Assembly (NCBI GenBank): GCA_964360065.1
Contig: CAYHTW010000001.1
Location: forward strand, 86,289 to 150,288
Direction: 5' to 3'
DNA from: an uncultured Candidatus Saccharibacteria bacterium
GTDB lineage: Bacteria > Patescibacteriota > Minisyncoccia > UBA6257 > Colwellbacteraceae
Length of the DNA: 64,000 bases
Positions 16,616 to 29,476 of this stretch are shown here, piece after piece; position 1 is the first letter of the stretch; each line of letters starts with the position of its first letter. The position numbers and the translations under genes are program-made. The notes below the pieces were generated by a model. The model saw nothing but the letters and a program-made list of their open reading frames with translations, ran no database searches and was not told where the DNA came from.

Positions 16616-17686
16616 TTAAACTCTTTCCAGAAGAATTCTTAATTCGCTTGGATTGACCGAGTAGAGCTCGGCATTTTCCAAAGAAATTTCCTTCCTTCTG
16701 ACGAGTTCAGCCAAAGACCGGTTTAGAGTCGTCATACCTTCCTGCAAACTGGTCTCAATAACCAAGTCTATCTGATAAGTCTTTCTTTCCCTGATAAGGT
16801 TTCTGATGGCGGAATTAACAAACATAACTTCACAGACTGGTACTCTACCTCCTTCAATACGAGGCACCAACCTCTGAGATACGATAGCTACAAGAGTTGC
16901 CGCCAGTTGGGAAGTAATCTGCCCCTGCTGATCAGCGGGGAAAGAGTCAATGATACGGTCTATGGTTTGAGCGGCTGAATTAGTGTGCAACGTCGAGAAA
17001 ACTAAGTGACCTGTTTCGGAAGCGGTCATAGCGGTAGCAATGGATTCTGAGTCTCTCATTTCACCGATCATAATGACGTCGGGGTCCTGACGGAGCAGAG
17101 ATCGGAGAGAGCGGTGGAAGCTCGGGCTATCTGTTCTAATTTCTCTCTGGGAAACGATAGACCTGTCCTGGACGAATAAATATTCTATGGGGTCTTCAAT
17201 GGTGATAATGTGGTCAGTACGTTTATGGTTAACCTCATCAAGTAAAGCAGCCAAAGTGGTTGATTTGCCGTTTCCCGCCGGGCCCACCACCAAAACGAAA
17301 CCTTGGTTAAGTTTAGTCAGTTCGTGAAGTATCGGAGGCAAATTAAGTTCTTCAACAGTTTTAATTTCGCCAGCGATCAAGCGCAAAGCGGCAGCCATAA
17401 AACCTCTCTGGAAAAAGACATTAGCGCGAAACCTGGCTTTATCTTCGTAAGCATACGAGAAGTCAACGTCCCCGTACTTTATCATCTTATCTTTCTGCTC
17501 TGGAGTCAGAAGCGCCAATATTAACCCTTGGGTATCTTCTGGAGTAAGGATATTTTCTTTTTGTAGGGCAACTAAGATCCCGTCAATTCGAAGAGTCGGA
17601 CGGCGACCGACCGCCAAGTGCAAGTCAGAGGCGTTTTGTCTCGCTGTAGTGAGGAGTAGTTCGTTTAATTTTTCCTTGTAATCCAT
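16616..17686 (-). CDS. pilT: Twitching motility/retraction ATPase PilT
   Basis: ASDLHL motif, Walker A GPAGNGKST, 356 aa without GspII N-domain. Confidence 0.9.
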   Translation of the reverse strand: MDYKEKLNELLLTTARQNASDLHLAVGRRPTLRIDGILVALQKENILTPEDTQGLILALLTPEQKDKMIKYGDVDFSYAYEDKARFRANVFFQRGFMAAALRLIAGEIKTVEELNLPPILHELTKLNQGFVLVVGPAGNGKSTTLAALLDEVNHKRTDHIITIEDPIEYLFVQDRSIVSQREIRTDSPSFHRSLRSLLRQDPDVIMIGEMRDSESIATAMTASETGHLVFSTLHTNSAAQTIDRIIDSFPADQQGQITSQLAATLVAIVSQRLVPRIEGGRVPVCEVMFVNSAIRNLIRERKTYQIDLVIETSLQEGMTTLNRSLAELVRRKEISLENAELYSVNPSELRILLERV

Positions 17687-17743
17687 ATTGGTTTTAATTA
17701 TAGCTTATCTTATCGAGACTTAGCCATTTGTCGGCCATTCTTA

Positions 17744-19492
17744 CTAATTGTTATCGCTCGCAGCACTCTCTCTTATTACTTCTTCCATGGAAACAATACC
17801 GCCCAAGGCTTTAATAATACCGTCCTGACGCATAGTGAGCATACCTTGCCTCTTGGCCTCGTCTCTAATCTTGCCTTCCACCGGAGAGCTATTAATAATA
17901 TTCTCCAACTCTCTGGTCATACTGAAAACCTCAAAGAGCGCGATTCTGCCGATGGCTCCTTTATTCTTACAAACGGGACAGCCCGGAGCATGATAAATTT
18001 GATAGGGCTCTTTGTATTTTATCCTGGCACGGTCTTCGGGGTTGATGCCGGCAATTTCGTCTTTAATAATTTTAGCAATGTCGGGAGGAGCAGCTTCGGC
18101 CTTCTTGCAGTTATCACAAAGACGGCGCACCAGTCTTTGAGAAAGCATCACGTTAAGGGTTGATGGCAAAAGGAACGGCTCAACTCCCATATCAACCAAA
18201 CGCGGGATAACACCAACGGCGTTGTTGGTGTGGAGAGTGGAAAGAACAATCTGACCCGTAAGGGCGGCTTGCACGGCGAGTTTAGCGGTATCGGTGTCAC
18301 GGATTTCACCAACCATAATAATGTCAGGGTCTTGACGCACGATTTGTCTTAAGCCGGAAACAAAGTCGTAACCGATTTCCGGGTGAACCTGAGACTGGTT
18401 CAAGCCTTCCACGAAATATTCCACCGGGTCTTCCAGGGACAAAACATTGACGTCTTCTTTATTAAGCTGGGTTAAGAGTGCGTATAAAGTCGTGGTCTTA
18501 CCGCTGCCGGTAGGGCCGGTGACCAAAATCATACCGTAAGGACGTTTGACGGCCGCCATCACCAAATCGGCTGCCCTGCCCGTAAGTCCCAAGTTACCGA
18601 CTCCCTTCAAACCAACGGTAGGGTCCAAAACACGGATAGCGACTTTCTCGCCAACTGGGGTAGGAAAAGTAGAAACACGGAAATCTATGTCGCGCCCGAA
18701 GACAACGGTTCTGAATCTGCCGTCCTGCGGGACTCTGGTCTCATCGATTTTCAGATTGGAAAGTATTTTAATCCTGGATATGATCGGCTGATGTATCTCC
18801 AATGGGAAAGAAGTTACTTCCTGGAGGGCGCCATCTATTCTGAACCTGACTCTCACTCTCGTGCGCTGTGGCTCTATGTGGATGTCGGATGCCCCTTCTT
18901 CTATAGCTGAGCGGAGTGTGGAGGCTACGATTTTAATAATCGGGGCTTCATCGGAGATGGAACCGCCTTCATCTACCGAGACTATCTTCTGGCCGAAGGA
19001 TAATCCGCTGCCGGGCTTGATATTCAAAGACTTGATAGCCTGCTGCACCTCGGACTTGTAAGGAGAGTATTTTCTAATTACTAGTTCAAAATCAGCCGGA
19101 GTGATGATGTAAACGCCAAGACTCAATTTATTTTGCTTAGCGATAAAACGTAGCGCTTCCTGGGCACGGACATCGGTGGGGTGAAGCATACCGGCGACAA
19201 GCATTTTGTCGTCACGGCTCAACGGGACAAAGCCATAGGTCGTGGCGGTTTCCAAGGGTATAACTTTAATAAGTTCTTCCGTTATCTCGTCAGGTTTAAT
19301 TTTTTTATAAGGAATACCTAAAATTTCCGATTTAGTTTTGGCTACGGAAACTTCGTCCAGCAGGTGCCTAGTGTAGAGAATGTCTTCAACTGATTTCCCT
19401 GTTTGCCCAGACTCCAAAATAAGTTTTTGACCCAGCTCCTCCGAGAGGAGAGTTTTTTTAATAAGAGCTTCTATAAGTTGCCTATCGTTCAT
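17744..19492 (-). CDS. pilB: Type IV pilus assembly ATPase PilB (GspE family)
   Basis: N-terminal GspII domain, Walker A GPTGSGKTTTLYA, tetracysteine motif CDNC..CPVC. Confidence 0.9.
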   Translation of the reverse strand: MNDRQLIEALIKKTLLSEELGQKLILESGQTGKSVEDILYTRHLLDEVSVAKTKSEILGIPYKKIKPDEITEELIKVIPLETATTYGFVPLSRDDKMLVAGMLHPTDVRAQEALRFIAKQNKLSLGVYIITPADFELVIRKYSPYKSEVQQAIKSLNIKPGSGLSFGQKIVSVDEGGSISDEAPIIKIVASTLRSAIEEGASDIHIEPQRTRVRVRFRIDGALQEVTSFPLEIHQPIISRIKILSNLKIDETRVPQDGRFRTVVFGRDIDFRVSTFPTPVGEKVAIRVLDPTVGLKGVGNLGLTGRAADLVMAAVKRPYGMILVTGPTGSGKTTTLYALLTQLNKEDVNVLSLEDPVEYFVEGLNQSQVHPEIGYDFVSGLRQIVRQDPDIIMVGEIRDTDTAKLAVQAALTGQIVLSTLHTNNAVGVIPRLVDMGVEPFLLPSTLNVMLSQRLVRRLCDNCKKAEAAPPDIAKIIKDEIAGINPEDRARIKYKEPYQIYHAPGCPVCKNKGAIGRIALFEVFSMTRELENIINSSPVEGKIRDEAKRQGMLTMRQDGIIKALGGIVSMEEVIRESAASDNN

Positions 19493-19782
19493 CAGAACGG
19501 AGTGTATGGATTCTGACGACCGTAGAGGGTAGATGTAGGCGGGCCCACCAGTTGTTTCAGGGATTTATACACTGGTGAATCGGTAACATTAGAAACATCA
19601 AAGCTAATTTTGGAAACTTGCGCTACTGATTGCATTTCGGTAGACACAATTGCCTTTTCAATTCCCGGAGGTGACTTAAAAACGAAATACGTGCCGAGGC
19701 CAAGTACGGCCATCACTATCACTACTACGATTGTAATGAAGAGCGGGCTGTTATTTTTTTCTTGTTCAATTAGTATGGCCAT
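19492..19782 (-). CDS. Small membrane protein of unknown function within pilus operon
   Basis: Single TM helix; start overlaps pilB stop (ATGA); between pilO and pilB. Confidence 0.4.
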   Translation of the reverse strand: MAILIEQEKNNSPLFITIVVVIVMAVLGLGTYFVFKSPPGIEKAIVSTEMQSVAQVSKISFDVSNVTDSPVYKSLKQLVGPPTSTLYGRQNPYTPF

Positions 19783-19788
19783 AATTTT

Positions 19789-20349
19789 TTATTGGTAATA
19801 TGTATCTATTATCAAACTATAGTTTAGCGCGGTTTTGCCCGCGGCTCCTCCTACATCAACACTTAAGGAGCTAACATCCATGAGTCTGATATTGGTTTCT
19901 AACCCTTCCAAATAGCCTTTCACGTTCCTGTAGTCACCGGTGAATTTAACCGTGATTCTTACGATACCCACGGGCTTAATAAGAGAATCCTTAGGAACGG
20001 CTTTGATGGGCGGGTACTGTAGCGACAAACCGGTAATAGTCATGTTATTAAGCCCAGCTATGCCCTGGATTTGCTGCACAATAGATGGCACCTCTTCTTG
20101 GATTGGCAGAACCGTAGAGATGCTGTTCTGGATATCGGTCAGGCTTTGATACTGTCCCAAAAGTTTATTAACCGCGTTGATAGCATCTCTCTGATCGTTC
20201 AAAAGATTTTCATCGGCCAGCTGCTTATCTTTCAGGGTCTGTATATCGGAATAGGTCGGCACCACAAAGTTGGAGTAAACAACCACCGCTCCGATAAGAA
20301 GTCCGATGCTCCCCAAAATACTTATTAACCTATAAGTTGATGATTTCAT
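19789..20349 (-). CDS. pilO: Type IV pilus assembly protein PilO-like
   Basis: N-terminal TM, coiled-coil, position after pilN. Confidence 0.6.
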   Translation of the reverse strand: MKSSTYRLISILGSIGLLIGAVVVYSNFVVPTYSDIQTLKDKQLADENLLNDQRDAINAVNKLLGQYQSLTDIQNSISTVLPIQEEVPSIVQQIQGIAGLNNMTITGLSLQYPPIKAVPKDSLIKPVGIVRITVKFTGDYRNVKGYLEGLETNIRLMDVSSLSVDVGGAAGKTALNYSLIIDTYYQ

Positions 20350-20875
20350 TTTTGAAAGTAATTCTTAACGTGAATTTAACAGTTTTATCGGTAGCGGAAG
20401 AGTCGTCCAGTACAACTCTCTCTACCCAAGGCGAATTTTCATATAACGCCAGCTGTCCGGCCAAAACCTCATAAGAAGAAGCGTAGCCTTGAATCTTAAG
20501 AGTCTCGTCGGGGATGGTGAAATTAGTAGAAGTGTAAACGACTTTTTGGTCGGTAGCTGCTTCTATGAGAGGCAAAAGCTTGGAAGAAAGAACGTGCTTG
20601 GCAAGCATTCCCTTTAAGTTAGAAATCTGGGAGTAAAATTCAACGAAGTTACTTTGCTCGTCTGGAGAGATCTGAGTCGAAAGACTTTTTAACTCGTCTT
20701 CTGTTTTGATAATCTGTCCTTCTACATAAGGCTTATAGCCAAAAAGAAGTCCTAGGTAAGCAACGATGGAACATGCAAAAAGCAGGGAAAAAAGTATGAA
20801 CATACGCCACGGCCAGCCCACCGAGACGTGGTCTTTCAGAAATCTGTCGTTAGCTGTTTCTGTGTATTGAGCCAT
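20330..20875 (-). CDS. pilN: Type IV pilus assembly protein PilN-like
   Basis: Single TM bitopic protein directly after pilM. Confidence 0.6.
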   Translation of the reverse strand: MAQYTETANDRFLKDHVSVGWPWRMFILFSLLFACSIVAYLGLLFGYKPYVEGQIIKTEDELKSLSTQISPDEQSNFVEFYSQISNLKGMLAKHVLSSKLLPLIEAATDQKVVYTSTNFTIPDETLKIQGYASSYEVLAGQLALYENSPWVERVVLDDSSATDKTVKFTLRITFKNEIINL

Positions 20876-20876
20876 T

Positions 20877-21968
20877 TTACATAAATTGCCTGATGCCCAA
20901 GCCCAAGGCTACGGAGAAAGGCGGACCTATTTCCTTAATAAGCGGCGCCACTTCAGGCGGATAGGTGATTTTAGCGAAAGGATCGGCTTTGACTGCCGGA
21001 ATACCGAACTGGTCGGAAACATATTTCTCCAAACCAAGCAGGTTAGCTCCCCCGCCGGACAAGATAATGCGCTCTATCTTGCTCTTATAGTTCTTTTCGT
21101 AAGTATCTTTGGCCCTTTTCGCCTCTCCAAGTATAACATCCAATAGAGGCATCATTAAAGTGGAGAGTTCGTATTCACCACCCGTTCCCAAAAGTCCTTT
21201 CTGTTTTTTGAGTTCTTCGGCGCGTTTGATGTTGATGCCAAGGCTAGACGAAACAGCTTGAGTCAGAGATCCGCCTCCCCAATCTGTTTGCACGCTGTAT
21301 TTCAAAAGGCCTTTTTCGGCCACAAGCAGAGCCGTAGAGCGCGAACCGATATCAACTATCAAGGTGGTGGTGGGGTCGCCTGCTGTTAATACTCTTGCTA
21401 AACTTACGCCTTCTATTTCCAGGGCCTTCAAATTTAATCCGGCTGATTTAAAAATACGCTGGTACTTTCTGACTTGTTCGTTGGGCACCGAAACAAGGAA
21501 TACTTGCTGATGTTTAATCCCCTTCTCGTCTTCGTACTCGCCAACGGGAAGCCAATCAATGCTTACTTCCGAAATCGGCAACGGCACGAAAGCTTTTGCC
21601 TGGTATTCCATCGCCTGGGCAGTTTCTTGTGGAGACATGACGGGTACGTCCAGTAGCGCCGTGAAAGCGGAAAAAGTCGGCAGAGAAGCTATCACATCCG
21701 TTGTTTTTATTTTTAGATTTCTAAGCAGTTGGTTCATCAGCTCACCCGTTTCCTTGTCCAGCATTTTCAGGGTTGAGGTCTGGATAGCGTTATTAAGGCG
21801 CTCCAAGTGGCCGTAGGATTCCAAAACACCGTAGTTCCTAAGCGTGGGGTGTCCACCGCTTTCGGTCAGCTCAACAATCTTAATAGAAGTAGTGCCGATA
21901 TCCACACCTAAGTAAGTCTTCTTGCCCATGAGAGATCCAAGAGAACCGAAAGATTTCAAAAAATTCAT
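20877..21968 (-). CDS. pilM: Type IV pilus assembly protein PilM (actin-like ATPase fold)
   Basis: GVDIGTTSIKIVEL N-terminal actin-fold motif. Confidence 0.85.
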   Translation of the reverse strand: MNFLKSFGSLGSLMGKKTYLGVDIGTTSIKIVELTESGGHPTLRNYGVLESYGHLERLNNAIQTSTLKMLDKETGELMNQLLRNLKIKTTDVIASLPTFSAFTALLDVPVMSPQETAQAMEYQAKAFVPLPISEVSIDWLPVGEYEDEKGIKHQQVFLVSVPNEQVRKYQRIFKSAGLNLKALEIEGVSLARVLTAGDPTTTLIVDIGSRSTALLVAEKGLLKYSVQTDWGGGSLTQAVSSSLGINIKRAEELKKQKGLLGTGGEYELSTLMMPLLDVILGEAKRAKDTYEKNYKSKIERIILSGGGANLLGLEKYVSDQFGIPAVKADPFAKITYPPEVAPLIKEIGPPFSVALGLGIRQFM

Positions 21969-21983
21969 CTTAGTTATATTATA

Positions 21984-22053
21984 CCAGGTAGTAGAAATTC
22001 GGCTAATTTATATTTGTCGCAAAAAGCGACCAGCCGAATTTTCACTACCTGGT
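21984..22053. promoter_or_regulatory. Long imperfect palindrome in divergent pilM/comFC promoter region (candidate operator)
   Basis: ACCAGGTAGTAGAAATTCGGCT ... AGCCGAATTTTCACTACCTGGT, with a small central hairpin GTCGC-AAAAA-GCGAC. Confidence 0.45.
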
Positions 22054-22064
22054 TATATCTTAAA

Positions 22065-22745
22065 ATGAGCATCTTGAGAAAAAGTTGGGCTTTCGCGCTG
22101 GACATCTTCTTCCCTCCCCTCTGCCTAAATTGCCAAAACTATCTGGAGGAAAACGAAAAACCAGACTTGGTCTGCCGTGAATGTTTAGAGAAGATTGAGT
22201 TGAATAAGATCCTATTTCATCCTAATAATATTTCTGGTATTAACTTTTCACTGGCTGCTGCCGCTTCTTACAATGATAAAACCGTTAAGGAGCTAATCCA
22301 CCATCTCAAATACAATGGGCTAACGGGAGCGACTAAACCTCTGGGAGAGTTTATCTTGAAGTACTTAACCGACATTAACCTAAATAGGGCAGACTGGATT
22401 TTAGTTCCTATCCCCCTTCATTCATCAAAATACAGAAAGCGAGGCTTTAATCAGGCGGAGCTCATAATTGAAGAAGTAAACAAGAAGTTGAGGTTACAGA
22501 TTATTACCAAGGCACTAAAAAGAGTTAGAGAAACCGACCCGCAGATAACTTTTTCCGGAACGAAAAGGGAAGAAAATGTTAAAAATTGTTTCGGCCCAGG
22601 AGAAGAAATAAACCTGGTAAGAGATAAAAAAGTTATTTTAGTTGATGATGTCTACACTTCCGGCGCCACAATGAAAGAAGCGATAAAAGTTTTACGTAGG
22701 AATGGAGTTAAAGAAGTTATGGGGTTGGTAGTGGCGAAGGCGTAA
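22065..22745 (+). CDS. comFC: Competence protein ComFC (phosphoribosyltransferase-domain protein)
   Basis: N-terminal Cys cluster (CLNC..CREC), C-terminal PRTase motif VILVDDVYTSGAT; start taken at MSILRK rather than ORF-track 22014. Confidence 0.8.
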   Translation: MSILRKSWAFALDIFFPPLCLNCQNYLEENEKPDLVCRECLEKIELNKILFHPNNISGINFSLAAAASYNDKTVKELIHHLKYNGLTGATKPLGEFILKYLTDINLNRADWILVPIPLHSSKYRKRGFNQAELIIEEVNKKLRLQIITKALKRVRETDPQITFSGTKREENVKNCFGPGEEINLVRDKKVILVDDVYTSGATMKEAIKVLRRNGVKEVMGLVVAKA

Positions 22746-22810
22746 AATAGAATTTTAAAAAAAGTGTACTTAATTTATGGAAGGATAATTTCTCCCTAAC
22801 GTAGATTAAT

Positions 22811-23476
22811 CTAACTTTTAGATTTTTCTGCTTTCAGTCTCTGCCTCAACTTTTTCTCCTTTTTGTAGACTTCAATAACTCCTTTAATCACTATCTGTTT
22901 TAATGGTTCATAGTCTCTATATTTATCTGCCCTACAAAGGGCTTCTAGGTATTTTTCTTTCATATCTCCCTCATATTTAACTTGGGATGGCTTGATGCCA
23001 TATCTCTGTAAGACAAGATTGGTCAGTAAACGAGCAGTTCTTCCATTACCTTGAGAAAAAGGATGTATTGAAACGAATTTATGTTGCGCCCAAACAGCTA
23101 ATTCTATAACATCTGACCACCATTTCTTATACTTAGTACTTTTAAAAGAGCTAAACCTAGGGCGAAGCTGTATTAAGGAACTTCTGTAATCGAAATCTCT
23201 CCAGAAGTTATAAATTTCTTCGTTCACTTTACTTCCCTCAGGAGGTTGAACGCACCTTAACTTTCGGACACCTTGGCCAGTTACTCTGAACTTACCAGCG
23301 ATTTGTGGTTCAGAATCCTTAAGGATCTCTGCGTGTATAGACCTTATGGTGTTAAGAGTTATTTTCTGCCGACTATCAGCTATACTTTTCACTAAGCCAA
23401 TAGCTCTCCAGAGACCAGCTACCTCTTTATCATCAAGTTCTCTTTTAGTTTTAGGACGAGAGAACTTCTTTGCCAT
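22811..23476 (-). CDS. Fic/Doc family protein (Fido domain)
   Basis: HPFSQGNGRTARLL matches Fic motif HxFx(D/E)GNGRxxR except Q at the acidic position. Confidence 0.85.
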   Translation of the reverse strand: MAKKFSRPKTKRELDDKEVAGLWRAIGLVKSIADSRQKITLNTIRSIHAEILKDSEPQIAGKFRVTGQGVRKLRCVQPPEGSKVNEEIYNFWRDFDYRSSLIQLRPRFSSFKSTKYKKWWSDVIELAVWAQHKFVSIHPFSQGNGRTARLLTNLVLQRYGIKPSQVKYEGDMKEKYLEALCRADKYRDYEPLKQIVIKGVIEVYKKEKKLRQRLKAEKSKS

Positions 23477-23690
23477 ACAAAGCTTTCTCTATCTGTTCAT
23501 TAGTTAGCTTGGTTCCTTCTATTTTAGAAGAATAGTAAAGATGCCCAATCGCAATATCTTGGTTAAATCTGGCCTGCTCTAAAGCAGATAGAGATGGTAA
23601 TTTACCAACCTCACACTCAAGATTAATGAGATGCTCTATCAAGGCCTCATTAGGGGAAACCTTATTTTTTGAAACCATTTTTTTCTTCAT
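23451..23690 (-). CDS. Small ORF carrying Fic inhibitory-helix motif (SSKIEG = [ST]xxxE[GN]); antitoxin-like, or frameshifted N-terminus of the Fic gene
   Basis: Overlaps Fic ORF start by 26 bp in a different frame; motif matches class I Fic antitoxins. Confidence 0.5.
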   Translation of the reverse strand: MKKKMVSKNKVSPNEALIEHLINLECEVGKLPSLSALEQARFNQDIAIGHLYYSSKIEGTKLTNEQIEKALYGKEVLSS

Positions 23691-23854
23691 TTTCGAGGTC
23701 TTTTAAAGAGTTCATAGAACAATCGCTTGTTCTTGCTACAGTAACTATAGCGACTTAGCTTGCTATTGTAAAGTCTAGTAAATAGGCAAAAATAAAGCTC
23801 CTAATCCTCCCGCTTTTTTGAGAACCGACTTTTTAGCTCATCCAAAAAGGTAGA

Positions 23855-23972
23855 AAAGTTATTCTGGTTGATGACGTCTATACCTCGGGCGCCACGATGA
23901 GAGAAGCGGTAAAAGTTTTAAGGAAGAATGGAGTTAAAGAAGTTATGGGGTTGGTAGTGGCGAAGGTTTGAG
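23855..23972 (+). pseudogene. Duplicated 3' fragment of comFC (encodes ..KVILVDDVYTSGATMREAVKVLRKNGVKEVMGLVVAKV*), in-frame stop upstream
   Basis: About 118 bp direct repeat of 22627-22745; last 45 bp identical, upstream part about 88% identical. Confidence 0.7.
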
Positions 23973-23977
23973 AAAGA

Positions 23978-24676
23978 TTACTCAATATTGTCTGACTTTT
24001 GAAGATTATGCTTCATACAAAGCAAACGAACATTTTTTGAAGACAAACTAGTCCCTCCTCTAGAAAATGGTAGGTCGTGGTCAAAGTGAAGATTCTTAGT
24101 CTCTCCACACTTAACACATTTGCCCTCATCTCTTTTCCAGACCTCTCTCTTAACTTCAGATGGGATTAACCGCGTGTACTCAATATGAACTTTTCTTGAG
24201 TCAAGATTTTCTTGCCGATCCGACAATCTTAAGATGAAACGAAATACATTTCGTTTACCATCGTGGACAATTTTGTAATCAATAAGATCAAAATATCCTT
24301 TCAAAGACCATACTCCAGGGAAAATTTTCTCATATACTTTAACTGGCTCTGCTGCATCAGTATTTTCTTTATAACTTTTAGCCGCCTTAATAAAATATCC
24401 ATTCTGAGTTAATTGTCCGCTAGGTAATTTATCTGGCTGGTCTTCTACTTTAGGGTTGTGATTATAAGCCCTCCTAGAAACATCGTGACCCTCGTACTCA
24501 ATAGTTAACCCATCTTCGTGAACTTTATCCTGATAGGGCGCGTTAGATCTCTGAGACATTAATATTACAGAGTAAGCCGGGTTCATTCTAAAGTTCATAC
24601 CACGCTGTAAAGTCTGAACATTCTCAGCGTCACACATTTCTCTATAACTTAATATATCGTTCTGAATTTTATTCAT
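23978..24676 (-). CDS. SRA-like domain fused to HNH endonuclease (candidate modification-dependent type IV restriction enzyme)
   Basis: N-terminal SRA-like motifs (AYSVILMSQ.., EDGLTIEYEGHD, QLTQNGYF, EPVKVY); C-terminal HNH (CVKCGETKNLHFDHDLPFSRGG..N..LLC..HN). Confidence 0.65.
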   Translation of the reverse strand: MNKIQNDILSYREMCDAENVQTLQRGMNFRMNPAYSVILMSQRSNAPYQDKVHEDGLTIEYEGHDVSRRAYNHNPKVEDQPDKLPSGQLTQNGYFIKAAKSYKENTDAAEPVKVYEKIFPGVWSLKGYFDLIDYKIVHDGKRNVFRFILRLSDRQENLDSRKVHIEYTRLIPSEVKREVWKRDEGKCVKCGETKNLHFDHDLPFSRGGTSLSSKNVRLLCMKHNLQKSDNIE

Positions 24677-24691
24677 AAGTTAAAGTATTTA

Positions 24692-27001
24692 TTATTCACT
24701 ACCAGATTCAAGAACTTCTTGGACGACACCTTGTACGCTGTCTCCCTCCTCGGGCGTGATTGGCATGTGACTTTTGTTTGTGCTCTTCGGCAATAGAATT
24801 CTACGCCCATCTTTTTTGTCATACATCTTTATCGTTACATTATCGCCAAGTAGAGCGACAACCCTATTACCTGTGTCTGCCTTTAGTTGCTGGCGGCATA
24901 AAACAAGATCACCATCATTTATACCTGCTAGATTCATTGAGTCACCTTCAGCCCTAAGTACGAAATACTCGAAACCTGGCTTGATTTTCGTTTTCTCTAC
25001 TGAAATGTATTCCTCAATGTTTTCCTGTCCTAATAAAGGATTGCCGCAAGGAGCAGACCCAACGAGTGGTATACGAAGCATATTCAAAGTAATGGGAGAA
25101 AAGACCGGTGCAACAAATTTTTGATAACTCTCCCCCGTTTCAATTCTACTTTTGAAAAACTTTTCTGTCTCTTTATCTACAAAATACACATAGCACCCCT
25201 TCATTCCACGAGTAAGAAGAACGCGATAAGTATTTTTAAGAAGATCAACAAGTTTTTCTCCAGAGCGCTTCACGACACTATCTGCGGATTTTTCTCGTAA
25301 CGCAATCCATGTCTGATTTTCAAAGTTGTAAACAAGATCCGGACCGATAATGACTCCGACATAGTCAAATTCAAATCCTTGAATCGTATAAATACTGCCT
25401 ATCTGATTCACTCCATTTGGATCATTCGGCCACAGCGAGGCCGGCGGAATCCCTGGGGCGAGTTTATAACCGTCTTTGCCTTCCCAGGGCATTTGAAAAT
25501 TGCCGATTTTAACGTCATTTACTAGCGTCCCGTCTGGATTAGGGTTGCTCCATGGCCAGCAAAAACCTGAGACAAGCCGCGCAGAACCTTGTTTCTCATC
25601 GCTTTTTTGTTTTATCTTTACATATAGTTCTTGAGGAGAATCTACAATTTGAAAATCAAACTCTTCTTTCTGGTCCCAAATGACGTTCGCTGTACGTTTG
25701 ATGCCGAGTGTATTATTTACCCAGTTCACAAATGCATCTGACCCGCTACACCGAAATTGCGCTTCTAACTCATAATTATAAACCTCACATCCCAACTTTA
25801 TAGCGGTATCTTTGATAAATTCCGCGGACCCCGTTTCATTAGGACGAACGTTTTGATTGTCATCAATAAAAAACACCCCAATTTTTGATGCCTTTATAAG
25901 CTCCTCAATTTGAGGGGTGTCTGATCGCATTTCTTTTTTTGTAAACCGGTTATTACTCGTCTCTCTTATTCGATGAGCTTCATCAGCAATAAGAACATCT
26001 AGAATATTCTTCTTAGAATTCATATAACTATTAAAATACTTAAATTGAACAGCTCCGCGAACACCAATCTTTTTCCTTAACGTCTCGGTAAATGCTTTCG
26101 ACCCCGTAGCATAGTTAGTGTCATATCCTGCACGCAGCAAATCCGCCATCAGATTAATAGCAATCACCGATTTTCCAGTGCCAGGACCACCACTAATAAT
26201 TACAACTGACTTTTTGTCTTTACCAAGCCCTTGTTTAACAAGGGAAATAACCTTGTCATATACAATAAGCTGTTCATCGAGAAGCACATACTCACTCCTA
26301 TTTTTTATCATCATACTCACATGGTCCATGAGTTTTTTACTCACTTTGTATTCCGTTTTCTCCACTCGTTCGAGTATTGGCAACCCACCTCCCGCTGAAA
26401 GTCTGTCTTTAAGGTATTCACTAAAAATATCTACACCATCCGCGCAAAAAATTGGATTATTTTTTATTTTTTCTGTAAATTTCATTGCTAGAAGCTCATC
26501 ATCCTTTGTAGGAGAATAATTATGAAGATAAGAAGCTGCGTCTAATTTGATAGAGCCTTCACCGTCAAATGCTGGGTGAAGATCTTGTAAATACATCTTA
26601 TATTGCCCGACTTGAACGGATGGATGAAGAACTTCTCTCTTCGCTCCTCCGACCCATGTAGCTACTTCATTCTCTCCATCTGATGCCTCACACTTCTCCC
26701 ATTGTTTAAGCTCAATAATAACTGCCCTATCACTTCCTGATTGATCTCTGCCAGTTATCATACAATCGAGACGCTTGGATGTTTGAGGAAGTTGATATTC
26801 AAGAATCACTCCGTGATCATCCAACCCCGAGTAATCGAACACTTGGGAGACAGCACGAAGAGAATTTCTCCACGACTGCACCTCGTTTGGGGAAGGATAA
26901 TACCTAAAGTACTGGAAGAAAGATTCTCTAAGTTTGTCTCCTATTTCGTTATGAACGGTGTCGTTTAAAAACTGAACGGATGAGCCCGAATAGAGTCTCA
27001 T
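24692..27001 (-). CDS. Three-domain protein: PD-(D/E)xK nuclease + DUF2075-type P-loop ATPase/helicase (Nhi-like) + C-terminal LexA-type S24 autopeptidase domain
   Basis: N-term LDCMITG..AVIIELKQW (D..ExK); Walker A GGPGTGKS, Walker B LIADEAHR; C-term IPLVGSAPCGNPLLG..FVLRAEGDSM..VTIKMY aligns to LexA CTD including cleavage-site region and Ser/Lys dyad. Confidence 0.75.
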   Translation of the reverse strand: MRLYSGSSVQFLNDTVHNEIGDKLRESFFQYFRYYPSPNEVQSWRNSLRAVSQVFDYSGLDDHGVILEYQLPQTSKRLDCMITGRDQSGSDRAVIIELKQWEKCEASDGENEVATWVGGAKREVLHPSVQVGQYKMYLQDLHPAFDGEGSIKLDAASYLHNYSPTKDDELLAMKFTEKIKNNPIFCADGVDIFSEYLKDRLSAGGGLPILERVEKTEYKVSKKLMDHVSMMIKNRSEYVLLDEQLIVYDKVISLVKQGLGKDKKSVVIISGGPGTGKSVIAINLMADLLRAGYDTNYATGSKAFTETLRKKIGVRGAVQFKYFNSYMNSKKNILDVLIADEAHRIRETSNNRFTKKEMRSDTPQIEELIKASKIGVFFIDDNQNVRPNETGSAEFIKDTAIKLGCEVYNYELEAQFRCSGSDAFVNWVNNTLGIKRTANVIWDQKEEFDFQIVDSPQELYVKIKQKSDEKQGSARLVSGFCWPWSNPNPDGTLVNDVKIGNFQMPWEGKDGYKLAPGIPPASLWPNDPNGVNQIGSIYTIQGFEFDYVGVIIGPDLVYNFENQTWIALREKSADSVVKRSGEKLVDLLKNTYRVLLTRGMKGCYVYFVDKETEKFFKSRIETGESYQKFVAPVFSPITLNMLRIPLVGSAPCGNPLLGQENIEEYISVEKTKIKPGFEYFVLRAEGDSMNLAGINDGDLVLCRQQLKADTGNRVVALLGDNVTIKMYDKKDGRRILLPKSTNKSHMPITPEEGDSVQGVVQEVLESGSE

Positions 27002-27003
27002 AA

Positions 27004-27351
27004 TTAGAGTTTATTATATTTCGTATGTTTCCCTTTGGCTTTTTCAACTGGATACTTATCTTCATTCTTTTTAATTTTTTTATCCAGCGCATCCAAGACA
27101 TTAATATCCAAGTCGTGACTCATAAGTAAAACCCAATACAAAACATCCGCTAGTTCTTCTCCAATTTCATCTTTATGGGTCCTAACATACTCTTCTATCT
27201 CCTCCTTACTCTTCCATTGGAAATGTTCCATTACTTCTCCAGCTTCGAGCACTAGTGACAACGCAACATCCTTAGGATTATGGAATTGTTTCCAATCCCG
27301 CGCATCTCGGAAAGCAATTATTCTTTTAAGTAGATCATTAATTTTTGGCAT
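27004..27351 (-). CDS. MazG-like nucleoside triphosphate pyrophosphohydrolase (small all-alpha NTP-PPase)
   Basis: EAGEVMEHFQWK ... EEIGEELADVLYWVL MazG signature; stop 3 bp before the start of the 769-aa gene (operon). Confidence 0.75.
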   Translation of the reverse strand: MPKINDLLKRIIAFRDARDWKQFHNPKDVALSLVLEAGEVMEHFQWKSKEEIEEYVRTHKDEIGEELADVLYWVLLMSHDLDINVLDALDKKIKKNEDKYPVEKAKGKHTKYNKL

Positions 27352-27438: not shown

Positions 27439-27963
27439 CTAGCCAAGATCCGTGAATCCGAGAGCTTCAAAAAGCTCAATAATAACTCTTTCTCCGCCAA
27501 CTTGCGTATGTATATTTGCGATGCCAAAGTGATCACAGACATTCGGTATTTTATCTTTCAAACGATTAGCTTGTAGAGGAAGCTGATGTGGTTTTTCACA
27601 AGTCACAATAACTGACACTTCCAATAAAGCGTCCGCAATAAGATATGGATCTGCTTGTTCATATTCGCTATCAGGATCTATAATCTTTGGAAAAGCTATA
27701 ACAACTTCAGCAGCTTTACTTTCCACGATAGTACCGGAAACTTTTACAATTTTCTTTTTTATGCTTTTAATCCAATTATGAGTGAAATCGTCTTTTCTAC
27801 TGAGTTCATTGTAAACTTTATCAAGAACAAATAACTTTCCTTCCTCTGCCGCACGCTCAATCTTTTCCCATACTTTCGGGAAGAGGTGGATAGGATAAGT
27901 CTTGCTGATTTGAAGCATCGCACTCGTATCGAGAGAGTATTTTTTACTTTCTGTTTGGCTCAT
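27439..27963 (-). CDS. DUF4411-like PIN-fold protein (partner of ImmA/IrrE peptidase)
   Basis: 174 aa, N-terminal YSLDTS acidic start typical of PIN-like folds; 4-bp overlap with upstream HTH-peptidase gene. Confidence 0.5.
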   Translation of the reverse strand: MSQTESKKYSLDTSAMLQISKTYPIHLFPKVWEKIERAAEEGKLFVLDKVYNELSRKDDFTHNWIKSIKKKIVKVSGTIVESKAAEVVIAFPKIIDPDSEYEQADPYLIADALLEVSVIVTCEKPHQLPLQANRLKDKIPNVCDHFGIANIHTQVGGERVIIELFEALGFTDLG

Positions 27964-29198
27964 TGTTGATGAGATGGAGGCTTTATTTGCGCATAGTGCT
28001 GATTTGTTTTATCGATAACTTTCTCTAAACCAGCAAGTTTAACGTTAAGAAAAGTCACTAGCTCGTTGGTGGATATGACTCCTTTTGCGGCAGCGGCGAA
28101 AGCTTTCTGACTTAAGTCGTAACTACTACTTTTAACTATGTCTCGGTAGTAGTCGGGAACAAATTTTTGTCCTTTTTCTTCCGCTTTTTTCCTTTTTCTT
28201 AGTTCTTCTCGCTCATACCATTTCTGCAACTCTACCCTCTTCATTTCATACTCTCTTTCGGACATATAGCCATGATTAACAAATTTTCTATAAATCACTT
28301 CACCACTGACCTTATATAGGTAAACAAGATTAGTTACTAATCTATCATCTTTAGTAACAAGATATTTTTTGACATATTCATTACCCAAAAAATCTTCGTT
28401 CGGTACTAAGAAAGATCCAGCAAATTCATTTGCTTTTATTTCAATTAACTTATGAGCAAGCTTTTCTCCTTTAGAAAATACTAAAGAATCTATGTCTTTT
28501 TGTGACAAAAGTAAGTGATAAAACTCATGAAATAGAGTAAAAATCCTTCCTCGAATAGCATCCCCCGCATTTAGAACGATAACCGGAGGAAGGCTGTCTT
28601 CTCTTAAGCAAAATCCCCTAATCTCTTGTTTGGGAAATGGAAGCTGAAAAACAGGTATTCCGCTGCCTTCAATAATATCAATCCATCTATTAAAGGCGAA
28701 TCCTTCACTCTTCCATCCCTTTTGTTCTTCAATGCTTATATTAAGATATTTTCTAAACTCGCCTGCTAGTTCGGTTGGATTGGAATTAAAACTTATTGGT
28801 TTTAACTTAACAAACTCGCTCTTTGTGACTTCGAGAAGATAGGCATAAAACTTCCTATTCCTTTGAGCTTTCCTGATAGCTAATCTAACCTTTGGGGAGA
28901 GTGTCTCGACATTGACGCTATCGAGGGTTCTAAAATCCCTTGGGATAGGATTTATGGTTGGTGGGTTATTAAGAAAAAAGAAGCTTAACGTCCTCTTTTC
29001 TGTTTTAGCTAGCTTCTTAAGATCACTGATTTTTACTTCTGAATCTACGTCTTCCCATTTTCTAAGTTCTTCGATATCAATTTTGGATTTCTCACTCACG
29101 GCTTCGATAGAAAGACCAATAGACTCTCTGGCCCATTTCATGATGGCTTTCTTTACTACAATTTTATTTTTTGGTTTTTCTTTTTTGAGACTTATCAT
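27960..29198 (-). CDS. HTH (XRE-type) + ImmA/IrrE family zinc metallopeptidase
   Basis: N-terminal HTH, HExxH motif FTLFHEFYHLLL. Confidence 0.8.
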   Translation of the reverse strand: MISLKKEKPKNKIVVKKAIMKWARESIGLSIEAVSEKSKIDIEELRKWEDVDSEVKISDLKKLAKTEKRTLSFFFLNNPPTINPIPRDFRTLDSVNVETLSPKVRLAIRKAQRNRKFYAYLLEVTKSEFVKLKPISFNSNPTELAGEFRKYLNISIEEQKGWKSEGFAFNRWIDIIEGSGIPVFQLPFPKQEIRGFCLREDSLPPVIVLNAGDAIRGRIFTLFHEFYHLLLSQKDIDSLVFSKGEKLAHKLIEIKANEFAGSFLVPNEDFLGNEYVKKYLVTKDDRLVTNLVYLYKVSGEVIYRKFVNHGYMSEREYEMKRVELQKWYEREELRKRKKAEEKGQKFVPDYYRDIVKSSSYDLSQKAFAAAAKGVISTNELVTFLNVKLAGLEKVIDKTNQHYAQIKPPSHQQ

Positions 29199-29252: not shown

Positions 29253-29342
29253 TGGCGGAAGCGGGAGGATTTGAACCTCCGATACCCTTTCGGGTATACC
29301 ACATTTCGAGTGTGGCGCCTTCAACCACTCAGCCACGCTTCC
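29253..29342 (-). tRNA. tRNA-Ser (anticodon CGA), 90 nt, CCA encoded
   Basis: Manual fold: GGAAGCG acceptor, anticodon arm CCACA-CTCGAAA-TGTGG, long variable arm, T arm GGAGG-TTCAAAT-CCTCC, 3' CGCTTCC-G-CCA. Confidence 0.9.
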
Positions 29343-29371
29343 TTATTCTATTGTAATGGACTCCTTCAACC

Positions 29372-29407
29372 CCTGCCTGCCGGCAGGCAGGACTCAGCCA
29401 CGCTTCC
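29372..29407. repeat. 20-bp perfect palindrome CCTGCCTGCCGGCAGGCAGG followed by a 17-bp duplicate of the tRNA-Ser 5' end (ACTCAGCCACGCTTCCT)
   Basis: Second copy of the tRNA 5' acceptor/D-arm segment located about 50 bp upstream of the tRNA. Confidence 0.6.
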
Positions 29408-29476
29408 TTTTGGGTTTGTTAGAGCTTAGCCCGAAGGCTGGATAATCTCAAGATTAGCAATAAGGTGTCTGAATAA

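Follow-up and report, generated by a model that had tools for sequence, protein, structure and literature searches.

Why would a nuclease-helicase of a kind used against phages end in the self-cleaving domain of LexA? The question is raised by a gene in a 64-kb stretch of DNA from an uncultured Candidatus Saccharibacteria bacterium (64,000 nucleotides, positions 86,289 to 150,288 of contig CAYHTW010000001.1; hereafter the window, in whose own numbering positions are given). The gene (24692..27001, minus strand) is a whole open reading frame (ORF) with an ATG start, and it encodes a 769-amino-acid (aa) fusion of nuclease, helicase and S24 autopeptidase domains. The answer that we tentatively favour is that this gene and the MazG-like gene immediately upstream form a two-gene anti-phage module resembling the defence enzyme Nhi, and that the S24 domain is a built-in off-switch sensitive to RecA*, the filament of RecA on single-stranded DNA (ssDNA). 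In this reading the enzyme would have acquired its C-terminal self-cleaving domain from its lineage's own LexA/UmuD-type proteins.

A nuclease-helicase carrying a LexA-type autopeptidase domain

The protein is real, since its closest homologues are up to 88% identical to it and its matches at E<=1e-5 exceed 7,900 proteins in the database. Database entries for such proteins are common, under names such as 'DUF2075 domain-containing protein'. The central part of the fusion (aa 240-622; 25136..26284, minus strand, as are all parts of this gene) is a DUF2075, or Schlafen-group-3, helicase core of superfamily 1 (SF1). The Pfam family PF09848 (DUF2075, now named SLFN-g3_helicase) matches aa 264-609 along the whole of its profile (positions 1-354 of 354; E 1e-89, 301.7 bits against a cutoff of 24), and both the Walker A motif GGPGTGKS (26168-26191) and the DEAH box (25973-25984) are invariant among aligned homologues. 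The fold resembles that of the repair helicases FBH1, RecD2 and Pif1.

The N-terminal 255 aa have no match in Pfam. Within them D79 (codon 26765-26767), E97 (26711-26713) and K99 (26705-26707) are invariant across 121 aligned sequences and are the candidate catalytic residues. In a separate model of the N terminus, residues 77-85 and 91-99 form adjacent beta-strands (predicted local distance difference test, pLDDT, 84). These features point to a nuclease of the PD-(D/E)xK fold occupying aa 1-215 (26357..27001). That this slot holds a nuclease is argued also by a Patescibacterial sister family, which keeps MazG, helicase and S24 and in which a GIY-YIG nuclease replaces the PD-(D/E)xK domain.

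A variable linker that is predicted to be disordered (aa 623-643, 25073..25135; pLDDT <50 for aa 623-640 in the structure prediction) leads to the LexA-type S24 autopeptidase domain (aa 644-766, 24704..25072), where Peptidase_S24 (PF00717) matches aa 645-759 with an E-value of 2e-20. When aligned by phmmer with the C-terminal domain of Escherichia coli LexA in the PDB (E 1.7e-13), aa 644-766 pair IPLVGSAPCGNPLL with LPLVGRVAAGEPLL, GDSM with GMSM and VTIK with VTVK, bearing out the residue-for-residue correspondence from cleavage site to lysine that an initial annotation of the locus had proposed. The predicted scissile bond C652-G653 (25043-25048), the nucleophile S688 (24938-24940) and the general base K725 (24827-24829) fall, in standard E. 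coli numbering, on A84-G85 (within the LexA cleavage motif VAAG), S119 and K156 of LexA. S24-bearing homologues keep the serine in 78 of 79 cases and the lysine in 78 of 78.

The winged-helix DNA-binding domain of LexA (PF01726) finds no match in the 769-aa protein, and the NCBIfam lexA equivalog TIGR00498 covers its C-terminal half only (model positions 79-198), with 77 bits where the cutoff is 110.95. As judged from its sequence, the protein is not a LexA repressor, because it is without the winged helix and its lexA score is under the cutoff. It differs from LexA and UmuD (MEROPS family S24) in that the 'cargo' N-terminal to the peptidase is an enzyme of 650 aa. The three-part architecture, the missing winged helix and the intact dyad with its cleavage site, all described in the initial annotation, are therefore upheld, and the C-terminal region is indeed an S24 domain with both catalytic residues in place.

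The closest validated counterpart of the first two parts is Nhi (SERP2475) of Staphylococcus epidermidis, a dimeric PD-(D/E)xK and DUF2075 defence enzyme whose C-terminal domain is variable; it is the PD-(D/E)xK plus DUF2075 architecture that defines 'Nhi-like' proteins. The window protein shares with Nhi and AbiO the N-terminal PD-(D/E)xK domain, the DUF2075 SF1 helicase, a poorly conserved extra domain at the C terminus, residence in defence islands and horizontal spread. Its PADLOC matches are only partial, and they are to PDC-S41, AbiO and Nhi: the Nhi model PDLC02372 (E 2e-12) is matched over profile positions 179-329 of 470, corresponding to the N-lobe of the helicase, and AbiO (E 1e-13) is similarly partial. 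Hence the resemblance to Nhi claimed initially holds for the architecture and does not extend to a full-length match of the Nhi hidden Markov model. The core of the window protein is about 620 aa long, and its family match takes in only some 150 of the 470 profile positions. Two further differences set it apart. Nhi works alone, whereas the window family has an obligate-looking MazG partner gene, and the C-terminal domain of Nhi is glyoxalase-like, whereas that of the window protein is an S24 autopeptidase.

A conserved gene pair with a MazG-like partner

The partner gene (27004..27351, minus strand) encodes a 115-aa MazG-like nucleoside triphosphate pyrophosphohydrolase that is DCTPP1-like and matches PF12643 (E 3e-17; 63 bits against a Pfam cutoff of 27). 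Its nearest solved structures are the pyrophosphatase 4qgp (E 7e-21) and mammalian dCTP pyrophosphatase 1 (DCTPP1; E 1e-16, full length), and the acidic motifs EAGEVME and EELAD are recognizable by eye. Its stop codon is separated from the ATG of the nuclease-helicase gene by 2 nt; the tight coupling first reported is thus correct, and the gap of 3 bp given with it is not.

We scanned related loci at one genome per species, which gave 73 loci, 60 of which could be judged for MazG adjacency. Their hosts are Patescibacteria, Omnitrophota, Bacillota, Bryobacterales, spirochaetes (Treponema), Acidobacteria and archaea, and the nearest relatives of all are Patescibacteria, namely Nomurabacteria, Minisyncoccia and Paceibacterota, so that the window is probably from a CPR bacterium. 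Under a strict test, 47 of the 60 loci have a MazG homologue as the gene directly upstream and 2 others have one directly downstream; L037 and L064, in which the ORF caller had overextended the start, were added on inspection by eye. The hosts of such pairs include Patescibacteria, Omnitrophota, Bacillota, Bryobacterales and Treponema. The gap between MazG and helicase genes is typically -4 to +6 nt across related loci. The conserved unit is two genes, MazG and nuclease-helicase, and conservation of the partner argues that the family works as a pair. Among the best 150 of 5,979 matches in a HMMER search of 1.84 billion representatives, none is a MazG-DUF2075 fusion; these 150 MazG matches are at most about 320 aa long, and the ones matched over two separate stretches appear to be MazG in tandem.

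What MazG acts on may be approached by analogy. A reasonable guess is dCTP or modified dCTP, because the protein is similar to DCTPP1, because the module is occasionally linked to an HNH gene and because DUF2075 NTPases have been linked to modification-dependent nucleases (PMC6765204). Bacterial and archaeal cores share 60-65% identity, and the pair looks horizontally mobile, with a patchy spread.

Some loci carry further genes beside the pair. In three Bacillota loci DUF6904 (PF21845) genes lie 12-81 nt downstream or overlap by 13 nt (L014:10491-11258, L033:3351-4118 and L042:10412-11266), and DUF6904 is a possible third component in this clade. A tandem pair of different DUF2075 genes is found at L064:5813-7783 and again at L080, on the Hymenobacter plasmid NZ_CP114769.1. 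On the plasmid a DNA methyltransferase gene lies upstream of the tandem genes, separated from them by DUF4747 and a hypothetical gene.

The S24 domain is optional, exchangeable and matched to lineage

We judged the presence of S24 on the best 120 of the more than 7,900 database matches. The domain occurs in 79 of them, so the fusion class is not rare, and 33 proteins, about 620 aa long, are without it. Two proteins that are 80-87% identical to the query have no S24 (the 80%-identical one is known from a 5-kb contig only), and the S24-less full-length loci of the genome scan mostly retain the MazG partner.

Where an S24 domain is present it need not resemble that of the window. Proteins of a clade about 800 aa in length have cores 60-70% identical to the query and an S24 region only about 22% identical, which we call the type-2 cassette, the window's own being type 1. 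Cores that are about 90% identical carry a third variant of S24, itself about 50% identical. The GIY-YIG sister family has the reverse pattern, its helicase being only about 41% identical and its S24 70-85% identical. One core orthologue, P0106 (705 aa), has an HTH_3 helix-turn-helix (HTH) domain (aa 637-679) at its C terminus, in the place that S24 occupies in other members.

The origin of the window's cassette is suggested by its relatives. An S24-only search places it 50-58% identical to genuine Patescibacterial LexA proteins, recognized by PF01726 together with PF00717, and tblastn gives identities of 55.7% and 56.3% to such proteins. They carry the identical motif IPLVG(S/T)APC-G (the hyphen marks the scissile bond), and by this comparison Cys-Gly is the normal LexA cleavage site of the Patescibacterial lineage. 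The idea that C-G is an odd site borrowed from UmuD was replaced, genuine LexA of the lineage having C-G. The host's own lexA is absent from the 64-kb window.

The nearest S24 relatives (74-89% identical) are short S24-only entries, many of them on short contigs and possibly fragments. At least one, P0147, is a genuine stand-alone protein; a Y-family polymerase gene follows about 3 kb downstream of its own gene, and it therefore looks UmuD-like. A stand-alone S24 protein of 126 aa, 74% identical to the window S24 and beginning at the cleavage motif, is encoded at L074:5001-9697. In this locus HNH_5, DUF4238 and one unknown gene stand between the S24 gene and a downstream Y-family polymerase gene, as if a small defence insert had split an umuDC-like pair.

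In about 20 fusions of this type the cleavage motif, GDSM and TIK hardly vary, in contrast to the hypervariable linker that immediately precedes them. Selection acting on cleavage would be expected to leave such a pattern.

Related S24 cassettes on restriction enzymes

The type-2 cassette of the ~800-aa clade is defined by the motifs LP(V/L)YSLKAAA-G, G(K/R)SMEP and (Y/F)T(V/I)K, and is 50-57% identical to S24 domains of short database proteins. The relatives that we checked include XRE(HTH_3)-S24 repressors, stand-alone S24 proteins and restriction-enzyme fragments, the last ending in a Type I R-subunit C-terminal domain or RE_endonuc (PF19778), plus S24. As to the RE_endonuc group, Type III-like C termini fused to a type-2 cassette are seen in P0295 and P0346 (L081:7001-7648); one long contig of this kind that we examined looks frameshifted, and no full-length example was seen.

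For Type I enzymes full-length fusions exist. One metagenome scan returned about 29 loci in which an HsdR C terminus and S24 share one frame, and four full-length ORFs of 1171-1214 aa combine HSDR_N, SWI2_SNF2, T1RH-like_C and Peptidase_S24. Full-length HsdR-S24 R subunits with LKAAA-G, serine and lysine intact are encoded at L082:1040-4681, L093:755-4345, L102:1903-5415, L089:3181-6735 and L095:3157-6753; at L095 the gene lies within an hsdM-hsdS-hsdR operon, next to ApeA. Serine and lysine are kept in all 19 aligned sequences.

A further HsdR fusion, L100, connects the two enzyme families. Its S24 domain is 63-66% identical to those of Bacillota DUF2075 fusions and at most about 50% identical to S24 domains outside that group, and no other HsdR fusion is in its top eight. 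This subtype, common to an HsdR and to DUF2075 fusions, is evidence that S24 cassettes move between enzyme families. In the same set of proteins (L010, L012, L033 and L042 of the Bacillota DUF2075 group, and L100) SL(K/Q)AVAT replaces SLKAAAG at the expected site while serine and lysine are kept, and the subtype may be non-cleavable or cut elsewhere.

It is quite conceivable, if short of probable, that S24 cassettes are a general plug-in sensor that has repeatedly been fused to the C termini of ATP-dependent defence nuclease-motors. Such a sensor would span DUF2075 enzymes with PD-(D/E)xK or GIY-YIG nucleases, Type I HsdR and Type III-like endonucleases, and would often have been taken from the host lineage's own SOS proteins.

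A possible SOS-triggered off-switch

In the mechanism that we propose, RecA* would form upon DNA damage and stimulate the S24 domain to cut C652-G653, parting the nuclease-helicase (aa 1-652) from a 117-aa S24 core. In LexA this core is the dimerisation module. The enzyme would be turned off through loss of S24-mediated dimerisation and/or through recognition of its new C terminus by proteases, and the host's repair and recombination intermediates would be spared during SOS, in effect a hard-wired restriction alleviation. We infer the cleavage, its trigger by RecA*, the off direction and the substrates of both the nuclease-helicase and MazG.

The likeness to restriction alleviation is purely one of function, in that a nuclease-motor of defence is silenced once host DNA is in danger. 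For E. coli Type I restriction-modification, alleviation is established to work through the destruction of HsdR by a ClpXP-dependent route (PMC4231737). E. coli thus uses an external protease acting on translocating HsdR, whereas the window protein would have a built-in, self-cleaving sensor.

We rank an off-switch above an on-switch, without great confidence, for the following reasons. An S24 cassette is also found on HsdR, where alleviation of restriction during SOS is an established need. The topology copies that of LexA, in that cleavage detaches a dimerisation domain, and Nhi is a dimer. Self-cleavage of LexA exposes a C terminus ending in ...VAA, which is a ClpXP degron, and a cut at LKAAA-G would leave a similar end. 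Finally, the core is unlikely to be a toxin that needs a lock, because close relatives without S24 exist and most full-length S24-less loci of the genome scan keep MazG.

Several observations weigh against this proposal. The HsdR fusions carry the type-2 cassette and the window protein type 1, so that the argument from HsdR is one of analogy; the predicted new C terminus, ...SAPC, is unlike ssrA; S24-less relatives evidently function without S24-mediated dimerisation; and the Bacillota subclade, with AVAT for AAAG, may not cleave at all. UmuD provides a precedent for activation by RecA*-stimulated cleavage, and the nearest stand-alone S24 relatives (74-89%) include at least one UmuD-like protein, P0147. 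Moreover, cleavage, RecA* dependence and anti-phage activity are predictions for the whole family, and the assignment to defence rests on context and architecture, as no PADLOC model matches the 769-aa protein over its full length and MazG matches none at all. No homologue was found in a viral contig collection, hence no direct link to a phage or satellite. A collection of phage GenBank entries gave only two core matches of 35-39%, plus repressor- and UmuD-type S24 matches.

Alternative explanations

Next after the off-switch, and unlikely by our estimate without being negligible, comes control of the opposite sign. S24 would hold the enzyme inactive until RecA* on phage or damaged DNA triggers self-cleavage, and the freed, active enzyme would destroy phage DNA or kill the cell by abortive infection. 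The cleavage machinery would be equally intact under this model, for which UmuD and its relative P0147 are the precedent on the peptidase side. On the side of immunity the precedent is set by M78/HTH regulators such as CapP/CapH, which serve in DNA-damage-induced defence, and an HTH-M78 gene of the window matches PADLOC capP weakly. CapH/CapP and ImmR/ImmA are alike in concept, since in them too it is proteolysis that links DNA damage to immunity or to a mobile element; they are transcriptional switches with a separate M78 metalloprotease, whereas in the window a serine autopeptidase is fused to the effector and control would be post-translational. Two findings count against activation. S24 is missing from the relatives that are 80-87% identical and from 33 of the best 120 matches, and since such proteins are common and their full-length loci mostly paired with MazG, the core is unlikely to be a lethal toxin in need of a lock. 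A cassette on Type I HsdR, moreover, makes little sense for activation, as restriction has to strike while the DNA is entering and thus ahead of any SOS signal.

We consider it improbable, and clearly more so than an on-switch, that S24 is not a switch at all and that cleavage is absent or incidental. The domain would then be a module for dimerisation or for binding RecA filaments, pairing protomers or bringing the enzyme to RecA-coated ssDNA, for example at intermediates of recombination-dependent phage replication. This would fit with the dimeric state in which Nhi works, with the Bacillota AVAT subclade, which keeps the domain despite its altered cleavage site, and with the HTH at the same position in one relative, which suggests a C-terminal slot for binding modules. 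It is at odds with the retention of serine and lysine throughout the fusions, at the frequencies given above, and with a C-G or A-G site that scarcely changes within the window's clade, although a hypervariable linker precedes it.

Slightly less probable again is a mobile cassette for the DNA-damage response rather than for defence, in which MazG would keep the pool of nucleotides clean, damaged forks would be the target of the nuclease-helicase and RecA* control would be post-translational, by analogy with the umuDC and imuAB-dnaE2 cassettes. The closeness of MazG to DCTPP1, a house-cleaning enzyme, the helicase fold shared with FBH1, RecD2 and Pif1, and the S24 source proteins, which are SOS components, are all consistent with such a role. 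The distribution, however, is patchy and transfer-like, with bacterial and archaeal cores as similar as stated above, and the gene is part of a low-GC island that adjoins a tRNA gene. Known defence genes recur as neighbours: the 144 flanking proteins of 24 related loci include strong matches to Drt1a, HmaA, DISARM DrmA/DrmD, BrxH, Hachiman HamB, mad3/mad8, AriA and DpdF. The nuclease domain has been swapped between PD-(D/E)xK and GIY-YIG, the architecture is that of validated Nhi, with partial model matches to AbiO and Nhi, and the S24 cassette occurs on restriction enzymes as well, all of which speaks for defence.

A core-genome housekeeping helicase with a degenerate S24 remnant is most improbable, as only the generic helicase fold is in its favour whereas the neighbourhoods are variable, the gene is in an island, the catalytic and cleavage residues of S24 are intact and conserved, and MazG is the sole conserved neighbour.

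The downstream HNH gene

The gene 15 nt downstream of the fusion gene (23978..24676, minus strand) encodes a 232-aa protein with a probable C-terminal HNH nuclease domain and an unassigned N-terminal domain that is a candidate reader of modified DNA. Its scores for Pfam HNH (18.1 bits, cutoff 21.4) and HNH_5 (18.3 bits, cutoff 27.5) are under the gathering cutoffs (E 2-3e-3), and a profile built from seven homologues matches the HNH domain of IscB with an E-value of 1e-3. C187 and C190 (a CxxC pair), H197, D199, H200, N215, H223 and N224 are invariant. SAD_SRA is matched below threshold (E 0.04, 14 bits against a Pfam cutoff of 30.7), and no solved-structure relative of the N-terminal 150 aa was found. 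Of the SRA-HNH nuclease named in the initial annotation, the HNH part is thus supported and the SRA label falls short of significance.

HNH homologues (44-74% identical) adjoin the module in only six loci (L001, L005, L006, L020, L043 and L059), once on the other side. Elsewhere the slot is taken by DUF6904, DUF3800, a second DUF2075 gene or a YgjP-like gene. The HNH gene had been counted as part of a three-gene operon. We rejected this as a conserved unit, since the gene is present at only those six related loci and the downstream genes vary, as against about 50 of 60 loci for MazG. The HNH gene is an occasional neighbour and not a core component.

A low-GC island with other defence-type genes

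GC content falls to 38-40% across 22-30 kb of the window, against mostly 43-46% in neighbouring bins. A tRNA-Ser(CGA) gene (29253..29342, minus strand; ARAGORN) marks the edge of this island. Eighteen nucleotides of the tRNA 5' end are exactly repeated at the border (29327-29344 and 29392-29409, 65 nt apart). An att-type repeat of the tRNA 3' end delimiting the island was not found; the only repeats present are this one and a second of 133 nt, described below. On the other side the island is flanked by a type IV pilus cluster (16616-22745) in which PilB-like ATPase, PilM, PilN and PilO-like genes are recognized by eye, followed by a ComF-like gene, the only one of these that Pfam confirms.

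Two genes lie between the module and the tRNA gene. One encodes an HTH and M78 (ImmA/IrrE-type) protein (27960-29198, minus strand; HTH_3, and Peptidase_M78 with E 6.5e-15), and the other a DUF4411 protein (27439-27963, minus strand; Pfam DUF4411, E 8e-27). Sixteen PADLOC RmrA models match the HTH-M78 protein, the best with an E-value of 3e-20, and no PADLOC model matches the DUF4411 protein. The pair resembles RosmerTA and would be a separate system in the same island.

On the far side of the HNH gene are a Fic-domain gene for a SoFic/PDC-S04-like protein of 221 aa and an overlapping upstream ORF of 79 aa (together 22811..23690, minus strand; Pfam Fic, E 8e-14). The Fic gene matches the PADLOC models SoFic (E 8e-19) and PDC-S04 (E 6e-17). 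The 79-aa ORF overlaps it by 26 nt and weakly matches the N-terminal part of the PDC-S04 models, and the Fic gene may be frameshifted or split. This 1.1-kb Fic cassette is bracketed by the 133-nt direct repeat (85% identical; 22619-22751 and 23845-23977). The first copy forms the 3' end of the gene for the ComF-like phosphoribosyltransferase (22014-22745) and the second lies just past the HNH gene, as if recombination at the comF-like 3' end had brought the cassette in or exchanged it. The PADLOC check proposed with the initial annotation accordingly returned defence-type neighbours, namely the RmrA and SoFic/PDC-S04 matches, beside the partial matches of the fusion protein.

The HTH-M78 and DUF4411 pair recurs, together with a Fic gene, directly downstream of an HsdR-S24 fusion on an unrelated metagenome contig (L082:4681-7511). 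M78 proteases are DNA-damage-responsive regulators. The co-occurrence at L082 may be chance or may reflect a shared theme.

Implications

Nhi-like nuclease-helicases are known as defence enzymes; a RecA*-sensing autoprotease fused to immune effectors would, if confirmed, be a new principle. The initial annotation knew of no described defence system with this domain combination, and in agreement with it neither DUF2075-S24 nor HsdR-S24 fusions, nor a pair of MazG with an Nhi-like enzyme, turned up in the literature, coverage of which was incomplete, so that absence is no proof. The analysis also defines a very widespread two-gene module, a MazG/DCTPP1-like protein with a nuclease-DUF2075 enzyme, that is absent from PADLOC.

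The family offers a prokaryotic parallel to Schlafen-11 (SLFN11, Schlafen group 3), whose homologous helicase domain ties ssDNA and replication stress to cell fate. The two differ in their N-terminal nuclease domains and are far apart in evolution (12% identical), and SLFN11 is recruited through RPA-coated ssDNA, not by a fused autoprotease.

To our knowledge, how a chromosome is protected from its own immune nucleases during repair is understood only for a few Type I systems, through ClpXP-dependent alleviation. If S24 cassettes are the general plug-in sensor considered above, immune effectors would be under direct post-translational control by RecA*, serving restriction alleviation or SOS activation, a layer not known to have been described in prokaryotic immunity. 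A self-cleaving RecA* sensor carried on the effector would be a simple and portable answer to the problem of self-protection, and its wide use is suggested by the presence of S24 cassettes on Nhi-like enzymes, on HsdR and on Type III-like nucleases.

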